Part shown: piece after piece, positions 14,926 to 31,686 of the stretch
Position numbering within the stretch: the stretch's first letter is position 1
How the letters are laid out: every line of letters begins with the position of its first letter
Assembly (NCBI GenBank): GCA_039545335.1
Contig: BCIN01000003.1
Coordinates: 2,489,060 to 2,553,059 of the forward strand
Source of the DNA: Kondoa subrosea
Lineage: Eukaryota
Length of the DNA: 64,000 nucleotides
Direction of reading: 5' to 3'
Made by a program: the position numbers and the translations under genes
The notes under the pieces: model-generated
What the model was told of the DNA's origin: nothing
What the model saw: the letters and a program-made list of their open reading frames with translations, nothing else
Databases searched by the model: none

Positions 14926-16455
14926 TTAGATCAATGTTGTGATATCTTCGTCTGCTTCAGGCCTATTCCACCTTTCTGCCTGCTCAGCTTCTCTTCTTTG
15001 GCCTTCTAGCACAGACTTCCGACTCCTATTCTTACTGGCCCCATACTTCAGAACGTATTTGTCATCATCGATGGAGGATTCGTAATGCCGTAGCGGCTGG
15101 CCTCCTCTTGAAGATCTTGCTGAACTCGTGTTGACTGCTTCTCCTTGGTAAATCCATCTTCTACTTCCCATGACCATATTCGAACCACGTTTCATTTCTT
15201 GAATATCAGGACTCCAATTCTCAAAGACCAATTCCATTCTCGGTACTCTTGCAATTCCTTCTTTTTCCCTTCCTTCCGCTTCTTTAGGGTCCACTTCGAA
15301 CAAATAAGTTCTTTTATGCATATCATCACTTCCATCATCAGTTGATCTAGAATCAATTGTTGCATTTTTAATTCTCGCATAACCTTTTCCAGCTAATTCG
15401 TTTCTTGTACCATCAGAATCAGGTTCAGGATGAAATTGAGTTTCACCAATTCCTCTAGAAGAAGATCTTGAAACTGTTGCTGAGATACCTAAAGCTGAAA
15501 CTATCATTTGAGCTGAATTGTTTGCAAATTGACCTCTACTTCTGTTTCTTGAAATATAAGAAGCTTTTAAATCGATTGGATGTAAAATTCGTGCTGGAAT
15601 AGGTTCTGCTTGATAAAGGTTGTAAAATTCAGAATGAGGTGTATAGGAAAGTCCATCTGCTACATGAGGATCTAATGGAAGAGCTTTAAGTTCTTCTAAT
15701 TCATCTTCTGATTTTTGTCGGATTTTTTGTAGCGCTTCTAAACCGGTTGAAGAACGTAGGAAATCAATAACGAGATCTCCATTGGAAGAGGATGATCTCA
15801 AAGCGTGTTCGTAAAGATCGTCAGTGTAACCAGCATCGAGTTCAGCTTGAATTTGAGCTTGATTCGAAGGAGTCGACTTTTCTAGTTCTGCTTGCTTCTT
15901 GCTTTTCCAGATTCCACTTAAATAATCCCGATATTTTTGTTGTTGAGAACGAAGTGCTTCTAAGTATGTGTTGAATTCAACTTCTGACATGTTCATGTAA
16001 TCTGGTAAATCATTGTACTTGCTCGTCTTTGGTTTTCCCATCGATACTTCTTCCTCTTTCCCTTGATTCGAGTCTTCAACAGTAGAAGTAGAAGCAAGAG
16101 GATCTTGTATTGGATTATCGGCATCGAAAGGTGAACCATTCAAGAAATGAGTATCCAATCTACCTCGATCTGCTTGAATGGAAGTAGAAATTCCAGATAA
16201 AGTTTCATCCCATCTCTTTCCGAACAAAGCTTCTTTTCCAGCAGAAACGAAATCCGTTTGACCATGCTTGCTATCCATCTGTCGGACTCGAGCAAAAGGT
16301 GTTTTGGAAGGAGGAAGAGGTCGCTTGAGACCATAATCGTTTCTATGCAAGTATCCTGCTTGAGAAGTGATGACCGTTTCGGGCGTGAGATGGAGAGCCT
16401 TGGATTGCTTGAGCAGATTGTTAAACTGGACAGCAGATGTTGACGATGCTGCCAT
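14926..16455 (-). CDS. MRP51: Mitochondrial small ribosomal subunit protein Mrp51-like (intronless)
   Basis: ORF with FNNLLKQSK...HRNDYGLKRPLP, the N-terminal motif of the fungal Mrp51 family; first ATG at 16455. Confidence 0.7.
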   Translation of the reverse strand: MAASSTSAVQFNNLLKQSKALHLTPETVITSQAGYLHRNDYGLKRPLPPSKTPFARVRQMDSKHGQTDFVSAGKEALFGKRWDETLSGISTSIQADRGRLDTHFLNGSPFDADNPIQDPLASTSTVEDSNQGKEEEVSMGKPKTSKYNDLPDYMNMSEVEFNTYLEALRSQQQKYRDYLSGIWKSKKQAELEKSTPSNQAQIQAELDAGYTDDLYEHALRSSSSNGDLVIDFLRSSTGLEALQKIRQKSEDELEELKALPLDPHVADGLSYTPHSEFYNLYQAEPIPARILHPIDLKASYISRNRSRGQFANNSAQMIVSALGISATVSRSSSRGIGETQFHPEPDSDGTRNELAGKGYARIKNATIDSRSTDDGSDDMHKRTYLFEVDPKEAEGREKEGIARVPRMELVFENWSPDIQEMKRGSNMVMGSRRWIYQGEAVNTSSARSSRGGQPLRHYESSIDDDKYVLKYGASKNRSRKSVLEGQRREAEQAERWNRPEADEDITTLI

Positions 16456-16616
16456 TCTGAGTAAAGAAGAATACAGCAATGAGAATGGTTCTGACTTATT
16501 CGATAATCACACATACTTGGCTGTTTGTTCCCTTCAAAGCTCCTCCTTTGGCGGTACAAGGCCAAAAGTGAGATTCGCATAAATTGTCTTGTAACGACGA
16601 TACTATACCCTTTGCC

Positions 16617-18564
16617 ATGGAGCAGTCTACAGATTTCCGCAATCACATCTTGCAGCAGCTACAGGAGTACCGCTTTGAGCTAGAATCAGCCAAAGATGCG
16701 ATTTCTATAAGACTCGTTTCTGGAACAGCAGAAATCTTTGGCATGGAACTTGCTATGGATGTGGACTATCCCTTCGGCGAAGAAGCTCGAGGAGCTATCT
16801 TTACCTGGACAGGATGTGAACTACAGATAGGTTGCCCTTCCTTTTGCTCTTTTATAAGAGTTCAAGTCAAATACCTGTCTTCCAATGTGTGACTGCCGCT
16901 TGTTTGTGTTTCTCTTCTCTATCCGAATATGCATCGTATGAAAGATCCTTGGCTTATTTCCTGTTTTGTGTTTTTCTCTTCTTATTCTCCTTGAATCCTC
17001 CTATATGCCCATTTTGCGAATATCTACGTTTTCGGCCAAGTCTCGACAGAATACATTTCAGAAGAAACGCCAATTCCATCTTACTATAACCTTCATCTCG
17101 CTTTAGAGCGGTTGCGTGTTTTATCCTATACTGGTCAACATGCTTCACCAAGAGTGCTTTTGATCGGTGAAGAGGAAAGTGGGAAAACCTCCTTGTTGAA
17201 ATCATTAGCGAATTGGGCTATCAGAAGTGGAAGAGCAAGAACGGAAAGAGAGGTTCCACTTGGTGAAATGGCAGATGAAGGAGAAGGTAGATCAAGAGGT
17301 GTTCTTTTAGTCAACCTTGATACTTCAGAAGTACATTTCTCAATCTCTATATTCATACCTTATCATGCCGTTGCTTATGATATTCAACAGGGAGGTCTAA
17401 CTATGCCTGGAACAATCTCTCTTGCACCACTCTACTCAATCTTACCTTCCTCTACACCAGTCTTACCATTAGGCACATCCCACGCTACAGGTATTCCACC
17501 ATTACAAACCATTCCCAACAATTTACCACAACCAAACATAATCGCTCTCGCTCCAGCATTGACAGCTTTAAGTTTTTGGTACGGAAGTTTAGAATGGAGT
17601 CGACCGAAAGAATTGGGTGATTTGTTGTTAACAAGAGCTGGAGATGCTGCTAGACAGAAATTGGATTTGGCTGGAGAAAAAGATGCTTTAAGTAAAGGTG
17701 GGATGTTGATTGATACTCCTGGTAAATGGGCGGATAAGAGCAAGAAGGAAATCGTTCAGGTCGTGGTTCGTGAATTCGAGGGTGAGTTGGTATCGTATCT
17801 TAATTTCAGTCAGAGTAATGTTGAGCTATCACAGTGAATGTCATTGTGGTTGTTGGAAGCGAGAAACTACATGTGGAGATGACCAGATTGATGAGCACAA
17901 ATCGAAGTGTTCTAGTCGTTCGAGTGCCCAAGTCAGGAGGAGTCAGTGAGCTCTTCTTTCCTGTAGTAGCATGCTAACTTGTACTGTTTCAAGGTGTCCG
18001 ATTTAGATTTGGCTTATCAAAGGCGAAATCACAGTCGACAAATCCATTCCTATTTCTATGGCGGTCCAGCTTATTCGATGGGTAAACTAAGTCCACATGT
18101 GATCAATGTGGGTTTTGAGCACTTGAAGATTTATCGCGTCGGCGAAGGTAGGTCATACTGAGCAATCTGTTTCTTCTCGTCGCTCAAGGCCAGCATATTA
18201 CAGAATATCAAGTTCCAGATTCTGCTCTACCTATTGGAGCTGAGCGAACGACTACAACTACTCAATTAGTCGAGATCGATCCTACTTCTTCTCGTGCAAC
18301 TCTGGAACTTGTCAACCAAGTTTTGGCAATTATGCAAGCGCCTGACGATGCAGATGATGAAGAAACTGTAGCTAGCCCAATCCTGGGCTTCATTCACATG
18401 TAGGTGACATTCATAGCCTAGGATCGCAATGAACTGATTGTCTCATGGGTAGTTCTACTCTGGATGCCACCAAGCAAAAATTCACAATTCTTTCACCTCG
18501 AGCTGGTCGACTGCCACGGAAGAGGGCAATTTTGGGTTTGATGGACTGGCAAGATTCTGCTTGA
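16617..18564 (+). CDS. CLP1: mRNA cleavage and polyadenylation factor / polynucleotide kinase Clp1
   Basis: EYRFE...LVSGTAEIFGMELA...AIFTWTGC; P-loop PRVLLIGEEESGKTS; LIDTPG; VPKSGGV; IHSYFYG; PDSALPIG. Confidence 0.92.
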
Positions 18565-21859: not shown

Positions 21860-24800
21860 ATGTGGAATATACCATCGCTGCTACTCTTGTGCTGTCTGCA
21901 ATTGCAGGTCTTTGCAGTTCGACAGCATGAATTCAAGACTTGCGCACAATCTGGCTTTTGTCGTCGAAATCGGGCTTTGGCAGACCGAGCAAGCGAGCAT
22001 AAGGACACTTGGGAATCACCTTATTCCATTCAAGGCCTTCCTAGCTTCAACGCAGGCGTCTACACTGCTACTCTAGCCAATGCTCTCTTCCAAGATATAT
22101 CTTTCTCCCTAGAGCTACGTTTCCAACATGACAATACTGTTCGTATTCTTGTAGATGAAATCAATGGACTCAGACAGCGTTACAATGAAGCTGCTTCTTG
22201 GGCTTTGATCAAAGAACCACAACTAGAAGCAAGTACTCAAACTATCAAGGCCGACATCAGTTCTACAAAGACTCAGATCACGTACGGTCAAGGAGCTTTC
22301 AAGGTTGTCATTCAGCATTCGCCTATTCTAGTCACTTTCTATCGAGATGATCAACCTCACATCGTTCTAAACGAACGAGGTCTCTTCAATATGGAGCATT
22401 TCCGTACCAAAACCGTTCAAGCGGCAACAGAGACTTCTGATGAGATCTTGCAAGAAACTCAACCTCCAGCACAACAAGTTCTGGCAGATACTAAAGATGA
22501 CAAGTTTGCCAAGTTTCTCGAAAAGAGCGAAGATGGTTTATGGGAAGAATCTTTTGGTGGGAAACAAGACACAAAGCCTAAAGGACCGGAATCAATTGCT
22601 ATGGATATCACTTTCCCTGGTTATGAACATGTCTTTGGTATTCCTCAGCATGCTGGACCTCTTTCCCTCAAGACAACTCGGTACGATCAATCCAGAACGT
22701 ATTGAGCTGTCTAATTTGAATTCTTCAGCGGCGGAAATAATGCTTATACCGACCCATACCGACTATGGAATTCTGATGTATTCGAGTATGAGCACGATTC
22801 GCCAATGTCAATCTATGGCTCGATACCTTAGTATGCTTCCTTCGTACTGTGCGGAATTTGGATCGAGCTAATCTGATTCACAATGTAGCATGCAAGCACA
22901 CAGAGCAGGATCAACAGTCGCTGTCTTTTGGCTCAACGCTGCTGACACGTGGATCGACATAGAAAAGCAGGCTACCCATAAATCAATCACAGATGCTTGG
23001 CGCAAAACCAGAAGCAAATCACTTGCAGACGTAGGACCGGAATCTCAAACGACTACTACACATTGGGTTTCTGAATCTGGCATTCTTGATCTGTTCATTT
23101 TCATGGGACCTGATTCAGATTCCCTCTACAAGCAATTCTCTAGTCTTGTTGGATCTACTGCTATGCCTCAATACTTTGCTATCGGTCATCATCAATGTAG
23201 ATGGAATTACTTGACTGAAGAGGACGTGCTAGATGTTTCCGCTAAATTTGATGAGCACGATATACCTATGGATGTAATGTGGCTTGATATGTAAGTACTA
23301 ATGCATCCAAACGGGACCGCACTTACTCTTCGCAATTAGAGAGTATGCAGAAGAGCACAAGGTAAATCCAATTCAACTCAGATCCGACTCTTTCGATCCT
23401 AATTTTTATCCTCAGTACTTCATTTGGGACAAGACAAAGTTCCCACATCCTGAAAAGATGCAGCAAGGCTTAGTCGATCGAGGCCGACAATTAGTGGCTA
23501 TCATTGATCCGCATATCAAACGTACTACAGATCTACACGTGTACAAAGAAGCTCAAGACTTAGGCATTCTTTCCAAAACTCCAGAAGGAAACGAATACGA
23601 GGGTTGGTGCTGGACCGGATCAAGTTCTTGGGTAGATTGGTTTGACCCGAAGAGTTGGGATTGGTGGGTCGGCTTGTTCAAATTCGATAAGTTCACGGTG
23701 AGTGTAATCTGATCTATGGAGTAAGAGTAGCGACCAATTATTCGCTTGTAGGGGTCCACTCGGAATCTGTTTATCTGGAATGATATGAATGAGGTACAGT
23801 CGTTTGAGATCTGGTAGTCTTTGAAGCTGACCATCGGTTAGCCTTCTGTCTTCAATGCGCCTGAGATTACGATGCCAAGGGATAACATTCATTCTGGCGG
23901 TTGGGAACATCGAGACGTTCATAACCTATACGGCATGCTATATGTACGTCTTTAGCCAATACTTCATGATCAAATCCCTTACCGTTCTTGGCCATAGCAC
24001 AATCTGACCTCTCGAGCTTTGGTGCATCGTGAAGCCGAACCCCGTCGACCTTTTGTGCTATCTCGAGCTTTCTATGCTGGTTCGCAGCGATTCGGCGCGT
24101 AAGTCATTTCGATTATGCAACGTACTTTCGCTGACAGGGGCATAGCATCTGGACTGGAGACAATGGTGGATCATGGGATCATCTAGCTGTTTCGGTTCCT
24201 ATGATTCTCGCAAACGGAGTTGGTGGAATGGCTTGGAATGGAGGTGTGGATGTTCTGCATTCACATATAGAATACGCTGACGGCACAAATCTAGCTGATG
24301 TGGGAGGGTAAAGCGTCACTGCTCTTCATCATTGAGCTCCAGCTGACAACCTGGTTTAGCTTCTTTGGCAACCCCACCCCAGATCAGCTCGTTCGTTGGT
24401 ACCAAGCAGGAGCTTTTGCGCCTTTCTTTAGAGCTCATGCGCATATCGACACGAAGCGCCGTGAGCCATATCTATTTGACGAGCCATATCGCGGACATAT
24501 GCGAGATGCTTTGCGGATCCGTTACTCGCTGTTACCGATGTGGTATACTGCTTTCTGGGATGCTCACCAAAGTGGGAAACCAATTGCTGTGTATGTTTGA
24601 GTTTCAATTTTCGTGCAATGCTAATATTGTGAACAGACCTCATTACATCGCCTTTCCGAATGACACGGCTGGAATTGCTGTCGATGATCAATATTATGTT
24701 GGCAGCAATACAGCACTTCTCATCAAACCGGTGACTGTTGAAGGCGCAACAGAAACAAGCGTCTACTTTCCAGACGAACAACCATACTACGATTACTTTA

Positions 24801-27238
24801 CAAATGAAGCTTACTTCGGCTCAAAAGGCGGAGCTTCTCATTCCGTCGCTGCTCCTCTTGACAAAGTTCCTGTCTATCAACGAGGTGGATCTATCATTCC
24901 TCGGCGGGATCTAGTTCGCAGAAGTGCAATCCTCACTTGGCGAGACCCTATCACCCTAGTGGTTGCGACAGATAACCAAGGCAAAGCTCAAGGCAGTCTC
25001 TACCTAGATGATGGTGATTCTTACGCGTATGAGCAAGGCGATTTCATCCATCGCAGATTCTCTCTAGACCCAACATCGGGTAAGATATTCACTCTGTCCA
25101 ATATTGATGCTGGATCGCAAAGCTCTTCGTCTGGACTCGCGATGTATACTGGCGACAAGCGGAAATTCGTTGAACAAATAAAGGATGTCACGACTGAAAC
25201 GATAGTGGTGCTCGGTCTTTCGAAGAAACCATCGTGTGTCAAGGTTGGAGACTCATCTGTCGGTCTCGCATTTGAATGGATCGAAGGTGTCTCCGCGACA
25301 GCAGGTCGCAAACGCTCTGGAAAACAAGCTAGCGTCCTTACCATTCGTGGCGCACATCTGCCCGTTTCGGTTGCTTGGAGCCTTCAGATCCATCTTGATG
25401 GTCAAGACTGCTCGCAGCAGAAGTACGAAGATCCACAAGCTGCTTTGCAAAGTCCATCGTGTCCTGTTGGTCAGTTCCAATGTCGTAACCAAGGGCATCA
25501 ACCGTCTTGCATTCTGATATCAAGAGTAAATGACGGGCTGTGTGATCCTGAATGCTGTGATGGCTCCGATGAATTCGATGGCAAAGTTCATTGCCCAAAC
25601 CGCTGCGCGGAAGTCGGAAAAGCTTATCGCAAACAGCGCGATGAAGAGAACAGGAAGACTCGCGTTGGCGCCAAGGTTCGAGCAGAGTATATCACTTTTG
25701 GTCGTAAAGAGAAGCTTCGCATAGAAGCAAATGTCGATCGTCTTCAAGTTGAATTGATTGCTTTGGAAGAGGAAGAGCGCAAAATGAAGACCATTCTTGA
25801 ACAGACTGAAGCTCGGGGTCAAGAAGAAACTGACCGCAAGAAGGCTAGTTTGGCTTATCTTCGGCTGGTAGACCAGCAGCGGGCGATCAAGATGCTGCGA
25901 GAACATAGAGACAGCTATGCGTCGCAACTAGACGAGCTTGTCGCTTTGTTGGGAGATCTTAAGAAAGGCTACAATCCAAACTACCAAGATATGGTGGTCA
26001 AGAGCGCTGTCAAAGGTTTCGAAGATTGGCAACGTGCTAATGGTTACGAAGTCGAGGCGAACGAATCAGCAGATGTATCAGAGGAAGAAGTACAAGAACC
26101 CGATGTCGCACAATCAGAGACAACAGATGCCTTCTCCGATAGTCAGCTTAAAGCATTTGAAAATGAAGATCCGCTCTCCATTCTCGACGACGCAGCGCAC
26201 GGACAGCTGACCAGCCCAAGCTCTCCTGATATTTCAGAGTCACGTATGTTTTCAAATCCTGTATCGTCTTCTTGTCTCAATTCCCACTGCCTCATGCCTT
26301 AGTTTTCCGTTTGGAGAACTACGTTCCGGAATCATTGAAGCCAACTTACACGGCAGCGATCGAGAATCTGCTGTCTGTACTATCTCGAATGGGAATCATC
26401 AAGGAGGCGCAAAAGTTCGATGGATCTTCGAGTGATCGACCTGGTGAGTAGTGCTTTCCTGTTGCTTTGCAGACTGTATTGATGCGAGGCGCCGCAGACG
26501 TCGTCAAAGCTCGATCTCTACATAGTGCGGCACAGAAGACTCTCACTGATAAGCAGCGCCAACTGCGAGAAGAAAAAGAATCACTTGGAAAGAATTGGGG
26601 ACGAGAGTGGGAATTCAAAAAATTAGACGGCACTTGCATAGAGAAGAATACAGGAGAGTCCGTCTTTCTTTTCTCTGCTCAGCAGTAGAGACATAAGCTA
26701 AACAGGCTTCTTCTAGATATACCTACGAAATTTGCTTGTTTGGTGAAGGCAAGCAAAAATCCAACAAAGGGCACATGAATACCTCGTTAGGGTGAGTGGG
26801 ATCTATTGACTCTATCGAACATGGCTCAAGGCTATATGCAGACGCTTCGCGGGCTGGCACCCAACTGCGGATCCATCGTCTGACGCATATTATACCAAGC
26901 AGATATACGACAAAGGCCAGCGTTGCTGGAATGGGGTGAGTTCCTTAACCCAGTAAAGGCCGCTTGGCTGATAGTGTGAACAGCCGGAACGGAGTGTCAA
27001 GCTAGACATCATTTGCGGCACAAAGAACGAGCTCTTATCTGTGATGGAACCGTGAGTTTCCGGACATATTGTTGAATTTTCTGACACTACACTGACACAC
27101 AGCGAGAAATGCGAGTATCTGTTCAAGATTACTTCACCAGGTCAGTTTAGCTTTTCATCGCTTTTGCGAAAGCTCACCGCGTGAACAGCTGTTTGCATAC
27201 CATCAACGGAAGAGGAAGCAATAAAACAGGAGCTTTAG
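21860..27238 (+). CDS. Fused ER glucosidase II: GH31 alpha subunit plus beta subunit (LDLa-like, coiled coil, MRH), C-terminal KQEL
   Basis: Signal peptide, [21 protein letters not shown], catalytic IWNDMNEPSVF and [22 protein letters not shown]. The same exon (24637-26243) continues to [31 protein letters not shown] and YNPNYQDM. Later exons give [47 protein letters not shown]. Confidence 0.9.
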
Positions 27239-27343: not shown

Positions 27344-28727
27344 ATGAGAGTTCAGACCATTGCCTTCAACATCGCTATATCCCAACTCCTATTGTATTTC
27401 TTGCCATTGCAAACAGCGCAACCCTTGATTGGACTCCTTCTGGGTGCAATGATCCTCTCTGGCATCTTTCCGCAACTGAGGTTCTATCTGCGATTGTCTT
27501 CTTTTATTGGTGGTCTGCTCACGACAGCGGCATGGGTAAGCAGCGTCTCAATCAAAAGAAATAGGATATGTTTGATCTAAAGCTTGAACGATAGGGTGTT
27601 GTCTCCTCCTTGTTCATGGGCATCATAGGCCGAAGATCTGATGCCTTCTGGGTCGTTGCAAGATCATTCTATAATCTTGTTGGACCTATAGGTATGCTCA
27701 GCATGTAGCAAGGCAGATATTGATTCTGACGTATTCTCAGTTGGCGTACGCTTCAAGATTCAAGGAGCCGAGTATTTGGACAAGAGCGCGCATCCAGCTG
27801 TGGTAGGTTCATCAGCTTTGGTGAAATTAATGCTTAGACTAGGATCCAGATCGTTGGTAATCATCAATCAATCTTTGACATCTTATATCGTGCGCACCGC
27901 GAGTATGATCAGCTCTAAAGTAGTCTAATCATCGAGCGATGCAGTCGGAGCTATCTTTCCAAAACAATGCTCCATAATGGCCAAGAAAGAACTGAAATGG
28001 ACACCGTACGGACTCAAATCATGTCCTCTGCTTGCTGCTGACATAATTATAGATTCCTCGGCCAATTCATGGTCCTCGCGAATGCTGTCTGGGTTGACCG
28101 ATCAAATCGTCAATCGGCTCTCGATACCTTCGCCAAAGTCGCAAAAGTGATGAAGTCCAAAGGAACAAGCTTGTTCCTCTTCCCTGAAGGCACTCGTTTC
28201 TCTTCCAAAACACCTACCCTTCTTCCTTTCAAGGCAAGTTTCGCCAGGTTTAGCTAACTGAAATTTGATCACGTTGCGTACTACAGAAAGGAGCTTTCCA
28301 TCTAGCCGTAGCTGGCCAGGTTCCGATAATACCGATAGTGGTGGAACCCTACTGGAAGATCTACTCTCTACCAGAGAAACGATTCGAATCTGGTGAAATA
28401 CAGATAAGAGGTCAGTCAATCGTCCGTGCATTCAAGCTGTCGCGCTGATCGGCACACAGTTCTACCTCCGATACCCACAATAGGCTACACATCTTCGCAC
28501 GACGATATCACCAAGCTGACGGACAAAGTAAGGGATGTCATGGTACGTCAATATGCAGTTCAGTAGTAATATTCGAATTTGCTTATGCCTATACTTCTTG
28601 TCCATTTCAGCTCGACGCCATAGAAGAGATGGTCAAACGGTCAGACACAGTTGCGGGGAGTCACGAAGTTCTTCGCGATGGCGAGCGTGCGATGGCACTG
28701 TATAAACCAAAGAAGAAGACCACATAA
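27344..28727 (+). CDS. SLC1: 1-acyl-sn-glycerol-3-phosphate acyltransferase
   Basis: Spliced motifs VGNHQSIFD, MAKKELKWTPFLGQFM, FPEGTR, PFKKGAFHLAV; C-terminal KKTT (KKXX). Confidence 0.9.
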
Positions 28728-28834: not shown

Positions 28835-31142
28835 TTAATCCGCAAACAACGATAGTTTTCCTCCACTGTTCAGCCAGTAATCTAAATCATCGTCATTGAC
28901 TAAATCAACAAATCGTTGTTGTCCTCCTGCTCCTTCTTCTTTGTACCTCAAATTTGATACATCTCCACCTAACCTCTCCCTCACTTTATCAAGCAAGGCA
29001 TCCCTGCTGACTGTGGGCGGTACTCTGATGGCAATCAAATCGTCCGTATTGCGATGGAAGATCTTGATCTTGATGAACGGAGGCTGATTAGCTCTTGCTC
29101 CGCCTGTACTGTTGGCGGAGTTTGACATTGTTCTAGAATGCGATGGTTGCTGATATTGATCTTGTGGGTAATTGTTAGAAGGCGGTCTTTGAGAAGAAGG
29201 AGGTGCAGATCCAAAACCACTGTTGAGACTTCGATGAGATTGTCTTGATGGACCCGAACGTTCAGATCCCGCAGCTGAACCAGGTCGAGTGTCGTTCTGA
29301 TAGTTATAAGCACTGTTGGCTCGCGATGAAGACCGTTCTCCTCCAGACCCGCTAAGTCTTGTTTGTTCCATTTGTCGAGCTAGAGATTGATCAGGTGTGT
29401 TGGCTCCACTTGATCCTGGCATTCGGCCCAATAATTCGACAATCTCATTCTCAGCAGCCGTTCGACCGACATCAAACGATTCATCTTCGATTTGTTGAGG
29501 TGGAGCAACTTCAACATCGCCAGGTTTTGGGACCAAGAAATCGAAGAAAAGGGAATGAGAGCGAATATGTTCTGGTAATTGACAAAGCTGAGACAGGTAA
29601 ACGCTCAGATCGGCTACTCTTTGTGCGCAAACAACTTCATCCACATCTTGCACTGGACCTGGCATTTTCGGTAACGTTCTTCTAGGTTTGTCTCCTGGTC
29701 TAGCATCAGGAGGTAATTCTCTTCCTGCTTCTACTCTAAATACATCCATTAAAGCGATTTGAAAGTCATAGAAATCTTCATATAGCCTATAAAGGACCAA
29801 AGAACATCTTGAAGTGAAAGAGCAGCGGACGTGGAACCAGAACGAGCCTTCTTCTTGATGGAAAGATTCAACTGAAGCTGAAATGACTAAACCGTATCGC
29901 TGGAGTGCGTCTTCGTCTTCCAAATTGCTCTGAGCGTATGATTGATCCGAGTATCTTTGATCGCCTCTATTGACCGAAGACTGCGATGTATTGTTACGAC
30001 CAAGAGCAGGAGTAGAGTAGGAAGAAGGCTGCTGAGAGTACGGGTTGAACTGCTGGCTACTAGGCGTATCATAATGAGAATTGACTTGTCGACCTTGAGA
30101 ATTCTGTCGACCATGGCCAGCAGGAGGCTGAGGTGAAGTGTTGGACCGTGAGAGATTACCGCTGGGAGGTTGTTGTTGCTGTTGCTGAGCGAAGTCAAAT
30201 TTGCCAAGAGGAATACTGTTCTGCTTGTATTCGGCTGTAGACTTCTTCCACTCTTCTACTGGTGGTAAAGCACCTCCTCTGATCATCTCTTGCACAACTT
30301 GAGCATCCAAAGCTTTCCCTATGACACGTCGAATGAGGTAAGACGAGAGAGAGATACACCTGAAAACTAACCTGTTGCCATATTCATGATAGAAACATAG
30401 CTAACCGGAATCAGACCAGGCCCTCCTAATCTCCCTATCGGCTTTGCTACAAACCATTCGTGATTTGATTGGGCGCTAACGAAGCAGAAAGTCAAAGGCA
30501 AGCCGGTGAAATGCAACCAAAAAATACGTACATAACCACAATGGGTTCACCTTTCTTAGCATCCAATTCATCCTGCCGTTGGGCTTCAAAGTCGAACTGC
30601 ACAATCCCGTACAAACTCTGCCCTTTGCCTCCAGCTGGACCTTTTCCAGGTGGTGGTGAAACAGCTTTGCCCGAATTCCCATTCTGTTGTTGTTGAGAAG
30701 AAAAGACAGCTGAAGAACCAAGAGTAGGACTATTTCCGGCACTTCCTGGTGGACTTCTTATTGTTCCAGAAGATTTGGCGTTTCGACCCAAGACTTCAAA
30801 ATAACTCATCGGTACCAGACCTCTGGCGTTGGTTAAAGGATTATGTGCGTCAAACCAATCTTCGCCAGATTGACCATTAGATTCCGATGCGTAGCGCTCG
30901 CTAAGAACATGAAAGAAGTCGCCCTTTTCGAAACCGAGTTGTAAAGGCGATTGAGATCTGTATGACTGTAGAGCTCGGATAACAGCTTTTGGTGGAGCAG
31001 CTGATTTGCTAGATAGGTTTTGAGGCATGAGAGGCTGAGCTGGACCTCGGTGAGACGATGGGAGAGGAGGGGAGGTTGGGCCATTGCTGTTCGACGACTG
31101 TCGATCTTTGTCTTTATTCAAGGACCTTCGAATGCTCTTCAT
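28835..31142 (-). CDS. BEM1: Polarity scaffold Bem1/Scd2 (SH3-SH3-PX-PB1)
   Basis: [23 protein letters not shown] (SH3a); [40 protein letters not shown] (SH3b); [15 protein letters not shown] (PX); [19 protein letters not shown] (PB1). Confidence 0.95.
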
Positions 31143-31686
31143 GTTGATGTGTTCAAGATCTGTGTCGTGTAGGATGAATATGGGCAGAGACGTTTACAGA
31201 CATAAAAGCAGATGCTTTGGCGCTGATGAGGACCCGAGAGCAGAGCCTTGAGATAGCAGTACAAGAGCAATAGTACTGCAGGTCTACCAGATGTCTCGAC
31301 AAGTCTTGAAGCAGAAACGCCTTTGTTGTTCCAGCTATATTCTTCAAGCCCAACCGAATTCCGACAAAATCGCGCTCGAGTTGCAGCGTGAGGGTATCTT
31401 TTATTGATAGCGTATAGCTGAGACTCTTTAGCTAGCTATATTGGCGCCAAAGACCGTTTAAATTGGCCGTTTCTCTGAAACCATGGCGCGAAGTCAATAG
31501 ACCCGGTCAGCGAATCAAAAATGTGGCAGACATTTCAATTTGACTATTCTGTACAAGCATATGTTTGAAGGAGGAATGATTGTCCAGCAAAGTCTCCCTC
31601 TTTTGTTATGAATGACCCAAAACCCAAAACAAACGATATTAGCATGACCAATTTGGAAAGTAGTAGCTACCATTCAATCCGGACTA

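Follow-up and report, generated by a model that had tools for sequence, protein, structure and literature searches.

The window analysed here, a stretch of 64,000 nucleotides of Kondoa subrosea DNA, carries at 21860..27238 of the + strand, on which all features described below lie, a gene of 19 exons whose predicted product joins the alpha (GH31) subunit of ER glucosidase II to a truncated beta subunit. In our hand-built model the 18 introns are all GT..AG, the start is the ATG at 21860, and the CDS of 4449 nt ends with AIKQEL and the TAG at 27236-27238, giving a fused protein of 1482 aa, in agreement with the single polypeptide of roughly 1,500 aa proposed in an earlier sequence-only reading, which had placed the gene within identical limits. 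That reading had described the two subunits as one polypeptide, and the signal peptide, GH31, Cys-rich, coiled-coil and MRH regions and the terminal KQEL were indeed all found in the predicted chain.

The alpha part begins with the start codon and a putative signal peptide (21860..21916, about residues 1-19), a hydrophobic stretch before VRQHEFKTC whose cleavage site we infer; alignments of homologues to the window protein begin at residue 18-19. Exons 1-11 (21860-22680, 22729-22830, 22889-23290, 23340-23361, 23416-23697, 23752-23793, 23842-23943, 23998-24098, 24146-24243, 24295-24307 and 24360-24590), which together span 21860..24590, encode the GH31 N-terminal mutarotase-like domain and the TIM barrel according to Pfam, with Gal_mutarotas_2 on exon 1 (2e-28, 100.4 bits, cut-off 27) and Glyco_hydro_31_2nd on exons 3, 5 and 11 (2e-13 to 1e-22; profile positions 1-44, 53-142 and 265-328 of 328). 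Two catalytic residues were assigned by motif: Asp554 in WNDMNE (motif at residue 552; 23782..23784), matched to human D542-M543, is the putative nucleophile, and Asp630 in WTGDN (motif at residue 627; 24159..24161), matched to human W615..D618, is by homology the putative acid/base. Human D542, M543, W615 and D618 are named among the active-site residues in the available part of the structural report (PMC9713302). The equivalents of alpha R817/R818 are also kept (DLVRRS), the GH31 C-terminal part matches residues 717-861 of 5dkx_A at 1.1e-38, and AlphaFold2 places beta strands in the distal C-terminal domain with a pLDDT of 85-94. Since a whole Mycena alpha subunit of 976 aa aligns with window residues 18-992 (49.8% identity), and the stand-alone beta alignment starts at residue 61 of the beta subunit, the alignments indicate that the alpha part is complete and that the beta part starts at about its residue 61.

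The two parts meet inside exon 12 (24637..26243), which holds the GH31 proximal and distal C-terminal domains, a linker, module 2 of beta and the coiled coil. Its limits, as given in the sequence-only reading, agree with AG at the acceptor side and GTATGT at the donor side. The reading frame around it (24347..26302, 651 aa) is uninterrupted and contains the GH31 end, the linker and the Cys-rich beta domain in this order. Searched alone, as the sequence-only reading had suggested for the spliced protein, this exon gave Glyco_hydro_31_3rd (1.2e-20), DUF5110 (7.8e-08) and PRKCSH-like (1.5e-20) in one chain, and it matched both the A (alpha) and the B (beta) chains of the same PDB entries (5jqp, 8d43, 7jty and 5f0e), a double match far beyond chance. 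Open frame, splice sites and Pfam matches thus confirm the claim of one uninterrupted exon running from the GH31 C-terminal domain through a linker into the Cys-rich domain of beta. The absence of a stop, a Met or a second signal peptide at the junction holds as well: residues 909-1121, read from the translation, contain neither a Met nor a hydrophobic signal-like stretch, and no Met was counted in the 120 aa before CCDGSDE.

The same junction recurs in other genomes. An alignment of the window protein with 12 fused homologues has the passage from alpha C-terminus to linker to module 2 in common, and full-length counterparts cover nearly the whole chain (Mixia end to end, window residues 18-1479, 55.8% identity; R. 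toruloides, window residues 1-1475, 52.2%). The junction is crossed in one stretch by 15 of the 150 best cluster representatives, and 32 of the 120 listed shorter matches, from independent assemblies, are single-ORF fragments that carry both the GH31 C-terminal domain and PRKCSH-like. An artefact of assembly or gene modelling might be suspected, as some database models are merged with neighbouring genes (the Mixia model of 2122 aa includes an HLH domain, and that of R. mucilaginosa has 1864 aa). However, the junction is an open frame in the raw sequence that needs no gene model, it is repeated, across many assemblies and annotation pipelines independent of one another, in at least 38 long proteins and at least 32 ORF fragments, and the loss of the first beta module, described below, is consistent among the fused homologues. 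For these reasons the artefact reading was rejected as barely credible, and the recurrence of the junction indicates that the fusion is real and old and no error of assembly or annotation. It is likewise very improbable that the locus yields two products, with an internal promoter or alternative polyadenylation giving separate alpha and beta mRNAs and the long ORF not being the main product; the two sequencing runs listed for the organism are both of DNA and may be the source of the assembly. Where beta begins, the chain offers neither a Met nor a signal-like stretch, so that a separately made beta would not enter the ER; moreover, the 120 aa that precede CCDGSDE are free of Met in 32 of 41 fused homologues too. 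A single exon holds the junction here, as a single ORF does in each of the independent fragments, and the reading frame through it is conserved over the subphylum Pucciniomycotina.

The claim that the beta subunit is fused to alpha stood for module 2, the coiled coil, the MRH domain and KQEL, but that reading missed that beta is incomplete. The beta part begins mid-chain and has no separate signal peptide. Its alpha-binding domain (G2B) has two Ca2+-binding modules in stand-alone betas, and the first of these (NDDYCDCxDGSDEPG), present in 11 of 11 stand-alone betas, is absent from the window and from all four fused rows aligned beside them. The Pfam PRKCSH-like match is limited to profile positions 71-172 of 176, and exactly one DG[ST]DE motif occurs in the window protein and in each of the 41 fused homologues. 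The linker (residues 991-1013; 25391..25459) corresponds in the alignment to YCDC..PGTSAC of stand-alone betas and appears to be a vestige of module 1, of which only a Cys and ALQSPSC remain; it has the invariant Cys997 and a conserved ALQSP stretch, and no DGSDE Ca2+ motif. This Cys is invariant in 26 of 26 rows (alignment column C258), C275 is conserved at 90% or more, and the AlphaFold2 pLDDT across the linker is 75-87. Module 2 of G2B (residues 1014-1062; 25460..25606), assigned by the PRKCSH-like profile and by alignment to human beta, is invariant in the 26-row alignment (RVNDGxCD..CCDGSDE), and the equivalents of N93, D94, D98, D104 and E105 are identical in the alignment to human beta 67-195, in which module 2 itself is matched to 67-117; in the part of the human report that treats these residues, their roles are those of Ca2+ site 2 and of contact residues (PMC9713302). 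The AlphaFold2 model is weak at the Ca2+ loop of this module (pLDDT 36-49, exon residues 301-330; pTM 0.50).

Downstream of module 2, a long helical, coiled-coil-like region (25607..26038) was delimited by the predicted helices (exon residues 323-402, 405-443 and 447-467) and by the human beta alignment, which extends up to residue 238. Exons 13-19 (26303-26443, 26498-26657, 26717-26791, 26842-26935, 26984-27051, 27103-27140 and 27189-27238; together 26303..27238) encode the C-terminal beta part and the MRH lectin domain, as indicated by alignments to stand-alone and fused betas; for example, residues 61-558 of the 583-residue Testicularia beta align with window residues 975-1477 (38% identity, 1.6e-102). 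The MRH domain is split over several exons and was assigned in the window by alignment, with PF07915 and PF13015 precomputed on fused homologues. Its conserved block (YTYExC..Q, CWNGPERS, EPEKCEY, SPAxC) is shared with five stand-alone betas and four fused homologues, and its conserved Gln, Arg, Glu and Tyr are presumably the mannose-binding residues. The chain closes with KQEL and the stop codon (27224..27238), a putative ER-retrieval signal; a [KRH][DE]EL C-terminus occurs in 38 of 42 fused homologues and KQEL in none of the 42, although we take KQEL to fit the broader ER-targeting pattern.

These features set the locus apart from the known arrangement. In the available portions of three reports (PMC3103398, PMC9713302, PMC12732852), glucosidase II is described as a heterodimer. 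Its subunit pairs are GANAB/PRKCSH in mammals, Gls2/Gtb1 in S. pombe, Rot2/Gtb1 in S. cerevisiae and GII-alpha/beta in C. thermophilum (PDB 5jqp). Heterodimer and window protein have in common the GH31 alpha architecture and catalytic motifs, module 2 of beta, the coiled coil, the MRH domain and an xxEL C-terminus; the window alpha part is 40.7% identical to frog GANAB and 47-50% to basidiomycete stand-alone alphas, and the beta part 34-39% to fungal stand-alone betas. In contrast to the heterodimer, there is one gene and one predicted chain here, beta lacks its own signal peptide and the first G2B Ca2+ module, and the putative ER-retrieval signal stands in cis to the catalytic part. The missing module has been studied in the heterodimer: in human, module 1 gives D53, D54 and D57 to the alpha interface (PMC9713302), and in S. 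pombe the subunits associate, and alpha stays in the ER, only if its Glu, E73, is present (PMC3103398). The model built for the human cryo-EM structure covers no more of beta than residues 18-117, as far as the available text describes it (PMC9713302). The fungal fatty acid synthase with fused alpha and beta, in which the fusion may be engineered or natural (PMC7300031, in the part available), offers an analogy only, that of an obligate hetero-oligomer joined into one chain in an unrelated enzyme, and no homology is claimed.

How widespread the fusion is had been left open by the sequence-only reading, and in part it can now be answered: the fusion is found throughout the named Pucciniomycotina and is not special to Kondoa subrosea. 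Among 120 listed long homologues, 38 are fused, and all 36 of these that bear a species name belong to Pucciniomycotina (Microbotryomycetes, Pucciniomycetes, Atractiella and Mixia, that is, four of the ten classes of the subphylum); further fused members were found in Rhodotorula. The other 82 are not fused and reach at most 47% query coverage, 80 being alpha-only, one a beta with unrelated domains and one an alpha with unrelated domains; the rows from Agaricomycotina, Ustilaginomycotina and Ascomycota among these long homologues are alpha-only. No named stand-alone beta from Pucciniomycotina appeared among the best 120 of 305 and the best 120 of 423 matches. The fused orthologues, such as those of Mixia osmundae, Atractiella rhizophila, Rhodotorula toruloides, Microbotryum intermedium (SCV72067.1) and Rhodotorula pacifica (XP_076513563.1), share with the window protein the architecture, the junction, the linker Cys, the ALQSP-C motif and the single DG[ST]DE; their unmerged models have 1398-1564 aa and a full-length identity to it of 50-56%, and most end in [KRH][DE]EL where the window has KQEL. 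The alpha parts of fused proteins (n=20) form one clade with an SH-aLRT of 99, and the window falls inside it, pairing weakly with Mixia (SH-aLRT 83 in a quick tree search). The window protein lies outside all four named classes and is roughly equidistant from them, its closest relative among the best 150 cluster representatives being a 497-aa fragment with 69% identity. This distribution indicates that the fusion is a trait of subphylum scale and a candidate shared derived character of Pucciniomycotina.

We therefore consider, with a probability of about 0.85, that the locus is the ER glucosidase II gene, that it encodes a single chain of 1482 aa with a truncated beta, and that the fusion happened once, at the base of Pucciniomycotina or close to it, where it would have replaced the two-gene arrangement. 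As we picture it, the N-terminal signal peptide would bring the protein into the ER, and the GH31 alpha part, putatively active, would trim the two inner alpha-1,3-glucoses from N-glycans. At its C-terminus, alpha would run straight into a beta without signal peptide and without the first Ca2+ module, so that a peptide bond takes the place of the module 1 half of the non-covalent interface. The C-terminal domains of alpha probably remain a docking site for module 2, because the Ca2+ ligands and the equivalents of N93/D94 and of alpha R817/R818 are conserved. The coiled coil and MRH domain may then offer the mannose arms of the glycan to the active site, and KQEL, as a putative retrieval signal, would return the whole enzyme to the ER.

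This scheme supposes a chain that stays intact. Alternatively, the fused precursor might be cut after translocation, in the linker or near the alpha C-terminus, giving a mature two-chain enzyme from a pro-protein that only ensures co-synthesis. Some 30 residues ahead of the end of alpha there is indeed a basic stretch, which reads GRKRSGK in the window and RRR/RRS in Microbotryomycetes and Mixia, and other GH31 enzymes appear in the PDB as processed fragments (7xoi_B, 'alpha-glucosidase C-terminal polypeptide'; 8cb1_A, lysosomal alpha-glucosidase 70 kDa). Nevertheless, rusts have no dibasic site there (SAKMTGLGK, SAKKTGAGK) and the site is therefore not conserved, and Kex2-type dibasic-specific proteases act in the late Golgi and not in the ER. 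In addition, the linker is predicted to be ordered and carries an invariant Cys, and a lasting covalent link makes it easier to explain why module 1 is gone from the window and from all 41 fused homologues. Cleavage thus seems unlikely, and we infer that the chain remains uncleaved in the cell. With more reserve, we favour the wider proposal that a single-chain glucosidase II, never cleaved, is a derived character of the whole of Pucciniomycotina and that, once covalently linked, beta could do without half of its alpha-binding domain. If so, module 1 of G2B would exist only for holding the subunits together, and beta would have no life apart from alpha in Pucciniomycotina.

An ancient, natural single-chain form that spans a subphylum including rust fungi and biotechnological red yeasts would be a natural experiment on the role of each part of beta, with module 2, the coiled coil, the MRH domain and the retrieval signal kept and the signal peptide and module 1 discarded. 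A tethered holoenzyme of fixed 1:1 stoichiometry may also be a route to the structure of the lectin domain as it feeds glycans to the catalytic site and, if never cleaved, could show the position of the MRH domain relative to the active site. As a clean rare genomic change, the fusion could serve as a phylogenetic marker in support of the monophyly of Pucciniomycotina. Whether it had already been described, the second point left open at the outset, has a divided answer: a full-text literature search found no paper that describes the fusion, of which no printed discussion seems to exist, and the sequences themselves are public, in NCBI and UniProt, where they carry automatic names, for example 'Glucosidase 2 subunit beta' and 'glycoside hydrolase family 31 protein'. 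Proteins of about 1500 aa named as beta subunit, ROT2 or GH31 protein call for caution in annotation, since with such mixed names a subunit may be counted as absent in tables of orthologues.

An open frame on the plus strand from 24347 to 26302 (651 aa) spans the junction between the alpha and beta parts of the fused glucosidase II gene (21860..27238, plus strand) and covers the terminus of the GH31 distal domain, then a 23-residue linker (residues 991-1013) and then the Cys-rich beta domain, as claimed by the sequence-only reading. The gene model, built by hand from the sequence and then checked by script, reproduced the limits proposed earlier for the junction exon (exon 12, 24637-26243) and comprises 19 exons, with all 18 introns of the GT..AG type. 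Its coding sequence of 4449 nt starts at 21860, stops at 27236-27238 and encodes 1482 aa. Fused homologues from Pucciniomycotina matched this model over the full length with almost no gaps (55.8% identity over 1484 columns for Mixia, 52.2% for R. toruloides), and therefore the splice choices are sound. A 13-nt micro-exon (24295-24307, plus strand), with introns of 51 and 52 nt on either side, encodes part of the conserved GH31 motif GADVGGF and is easy for automatic gene callers to overlook.

The prediction that alpha and beta domains occur in one chain was borne out by Pfam, since the junction exon alone matched Glyco_hydro_31_3rd, DUF5110 and PRKCSH-like. With exons run singly, Gal_mutarotas_2 was found on exon 1 and the GH31 barrel on exons 3, 5 and 11. 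The junction exon also matched both the alpha and the beta chains of each of the complexes 5jqp, 8d43, 7jty and 5f0e in PDB. By BLASTP, a stand-alone alpha of Mycena aligned as a whole (976 aa) to residues 18-992 of the window protein with 49.8% identity, and residues 61-558 of a stand-alone beta of Testicularia (583 aa) aligned to residues 975-1477 (38%, 1.6e-102); therefore the alpha part is complete and continues directly into a beta without its first 60 or so residues. Both catalytic motifs are present, WNDMNE at residue 552 and WTGDN at residue 627, the block of the MRH lectin domain is conserved in alignment with stand-alone betas, and the chain ends in KQEL. Pfam matched none of three short MRH-region exons (31-52 aa) run one by one, as expected at such size. 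The fused chain is predicted to have glucosidase II activity, and KQEL is its putative retrieval signal. A basic patch, RKR, is present at residues 963-965 (about 25307-25315) within the final strands of the distal domain of alpha, some 30 residues before the junction; its equivalents are RRR or RRS in Microbotryomycetes and Mixia, and are not dibasic in rusts.

The fusion is clade-wide. In an exhaustive HMMER search, 15 of the best 150 cluster representatives crossed the junction in one stretch, including a 1508-aa protein of Microbotryum intermedium and proteins of 1487-1488 aa from four Rhodotorula species. A word-seeded search among longer proteins, with the junction exon as query, gave 120 listed matches, 38 of which covered 83-100% of the exon and carried both the GH31 and the PRKCSH-like Pfam domains. 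Among these, all 36 with a species name belong to Pucciniomycotina, namely to Phenoliferia, Rhodosporidiobolus, Rhodotorula, Sporobolomyces, Pseudohyphozyma, Meredithblackwellia, Microbotryum, three further Microbotryomycetes, Mixia and Atractiella, and also to Phakopsora, Puccinia, Cronartium, Austropuccinia and Melampsora. The lineages of Atractiella, Meredithblackwellia and Phenoliferia were checked in a taxonomy database; with the remaining genera in their usual classes, the named fused proteins represent four of the ten classes of Pucciniomycotina, the six others being Agaricostilbomycetes, Cystobasidiomycetes, Tritirachiomycetes, Classiculomycetes, Cryptomycocolacomycetes and Spiculogloeomycetes. 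The other 82 listed matches covered 47% of the exon or less: 80, about 940-1100 aa long, contained alpha alone and came from Agaricomycotina, Ustilaginomycotina, Ascomycota, a chytrid, animals and others, and two were a Clathrus beta and a Rhizoctonia alpha, each merged with unrelated domains. Two database proteins were apparently merged with a neighbour. P0187 of Mixia osmundae (2122 aa) has an additional HLH domain beyond the beta part, the window protein aligning only to its residues 21-1495, and P0157 of Rhodotorula mucilaginosa (1864 aa) has a long N-terminal extension, its 90% cluster also containing TauD/TfdA dioxygenase proteins.

Stand-alone betas were searched in two ways. The beta half of the junction exon was compared with proteins of 294-937 aa (120 of 305 matches listed), and the beta part of the R. 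toruloides fused protein with proteins of 823 aa or fewer (120 of 423 listed). Among the matches listed in the first search, at least 32 were single-ORF fragments with a GH31 C-terminal domain plus PRKCSH-like, which are an independent confirmation of the junction at the DNA level, and all complete betas with a species name came from Ustilaginomycotina or Agaricomycotina. Among those listed in the second, the matches at 57-71% identity were fragments, and the species-named complete betas showed 41% identity or less and all came from other subphyla or phyla. Thus, no species-named stand-alone beta of Pucciniomycotina was present among the matches listed in either search. This is good evidence that no stand-alone beta is left in Pucciniomycotina, short of proof because it covers 120 of 305 and 120 of 423 matches.

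The fused proteins have lost one of the two Ca2+-binding modules of the G2B domain, through which beta binds alpha. Both modules are present in all 11 stand-alone betas aligned, with the motifs NDDYCDCxDGSDEPGTSAC in module 1 and then FxCxNxGH..RVNDGxCD..CCDGSDE in module 2. In the window protein and four fused proteins aligned with them, module 2 is kept and module 1 is gone, its place being taken by a short segment that contains a single Cys and ALQSPSC and aligns to the module 1 tail. The linker Cys is invariant across the 26 rows of alignment A1 (column C258), and the PRKCSH-like match on the junction exon covers only positions 71-172 of the 176 of the Pfam profile. Exactly one DG[ST]DE motif was found in the window protein and in each of 41 fused homologues. 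That the fusion is an artefact is excluded by this consistency, together with the uninterrupted frame and the recurrence of the same junction in the 38 long proteins and the ORF fragments.

Previous structural work describes Ca2+ site 1 of human beta as Q50, D53, Y55, D57, D63 and E64, in module 1, and site 2 as R91, D94, V96, D98, D104 and E105, in module 2; Arg 815, 817, 818, 891 and 929 of human alpha contact D53, D54 and D57 of module 1 and N93 and D94 of module 2 (PMC9713302). In S. pombe, the beta substitutions E73A and E114A abolished both the alpha-beta interaction and the ER retention of alpha (PMC3103398), these residues corresponding to human E64 and E105 (PMC9713302). The human residues N93, D94, D98, D104 and E105 are identical in module 2 of the window protein, and equivalents of alpha R817 and R818 are kept in its alpha part, whereas the equivalent of human E64 (S. 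pombe E73) is absent, gone with module 1. A regular expression for the RR motif matched 21 of the 41 fused homologues, all as [VI]RR, the other 20 being pattern failures, so that the figure is not a conservation count. Loss of the equivalent of alpha R815, whose human partner is D54 of module 1, together with that module was considered and rejected: the window protein has Leu there, but heterodimeric C. thermophilum has Ile, which makes the position uninformative. We infer that the job of module 1 has passed to the peptide bond and that module 2 may still dock on alpha. AlphaFold2 modeling of the junction exon (mean pLDDT 71.9, pTM 0.50) gave pLDDT values of 85-94 for the distal domain, 75-87 for the linker and only 36-49 for the Ca2+ loop of module 2, with long helices after it; the predicted model fits an ordered linker and gives nothing firm on module 2 docking.

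A fused precursor cut into two chains is disfavoured, because no dibasic site is conserved across the clade and module 1 has been lost. Separate translation of beta is very unlikely, since the translated model has neither a Met nor a signal sequence for a separate beta at the junction, in agreement with what had been read from the sequence. A single uncut chain would depart from the heterodimer described for glucosidase II in three papers (PMC3103398; PMC9713302; PMC12732852). Public databases already list fused proteins, with automatic names that vary from entry to entry, yet no description of a natural fused alpha-beta glucosidase II was found in openly accessible full texts; as far as searched, the enzyme is visible in databases and undescribed in that literature. 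Titles and abstract openings of glucosidase II papers mentioning Rhodotorula or Puccinia held nothing on enzyme architecture.

A quick maximum-likelihood tree built from 36 alpha parts grouped the 20 fused ones in a single clade (SH-aLRT 99), next to Ustilaginomycotina plus Agaricomycotina. It put the window protein outside Microbotryomycetes, Pucciniales and Atractiella, in a weak pairing with Mixia (83). Its best identity to species-named fused homologues was about 50-56%, and its closest relative among the best 150 cluster representatives was a protein fragment at 69% identity. The source organism therefore belongs to another lineage within Pucciniomycotina and is no rust.

The neighbours of the fused gene are ordinary fungal housekeeping genes, encoding the mitochondrial ribosomal protein Mrp51 (14926-16506, minus strand), a fragment of the polyadenylation factor Clp1 (16995-17837, plus strand), an exon of a PlsC-type acyltransferase (28042-28257, plus strand) and a PX- plus SH3-domain protein (28835-31193, minus strand), and among them there was no sign of a mobile element or gene cluster. 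The separate alpha and beta genes sit on contigs of unequal length in Mycena maculata, Cryptococcus amylolentus, Pseudozyma flocculosa and Fomitiporia. In Sympodiomycopsis kandeliae (Ustilaginomycotina), the stand-alone alpha and beta (P0236 and P0389) are both on a 5,778,576-base contig and therefore probably on one chromosome.
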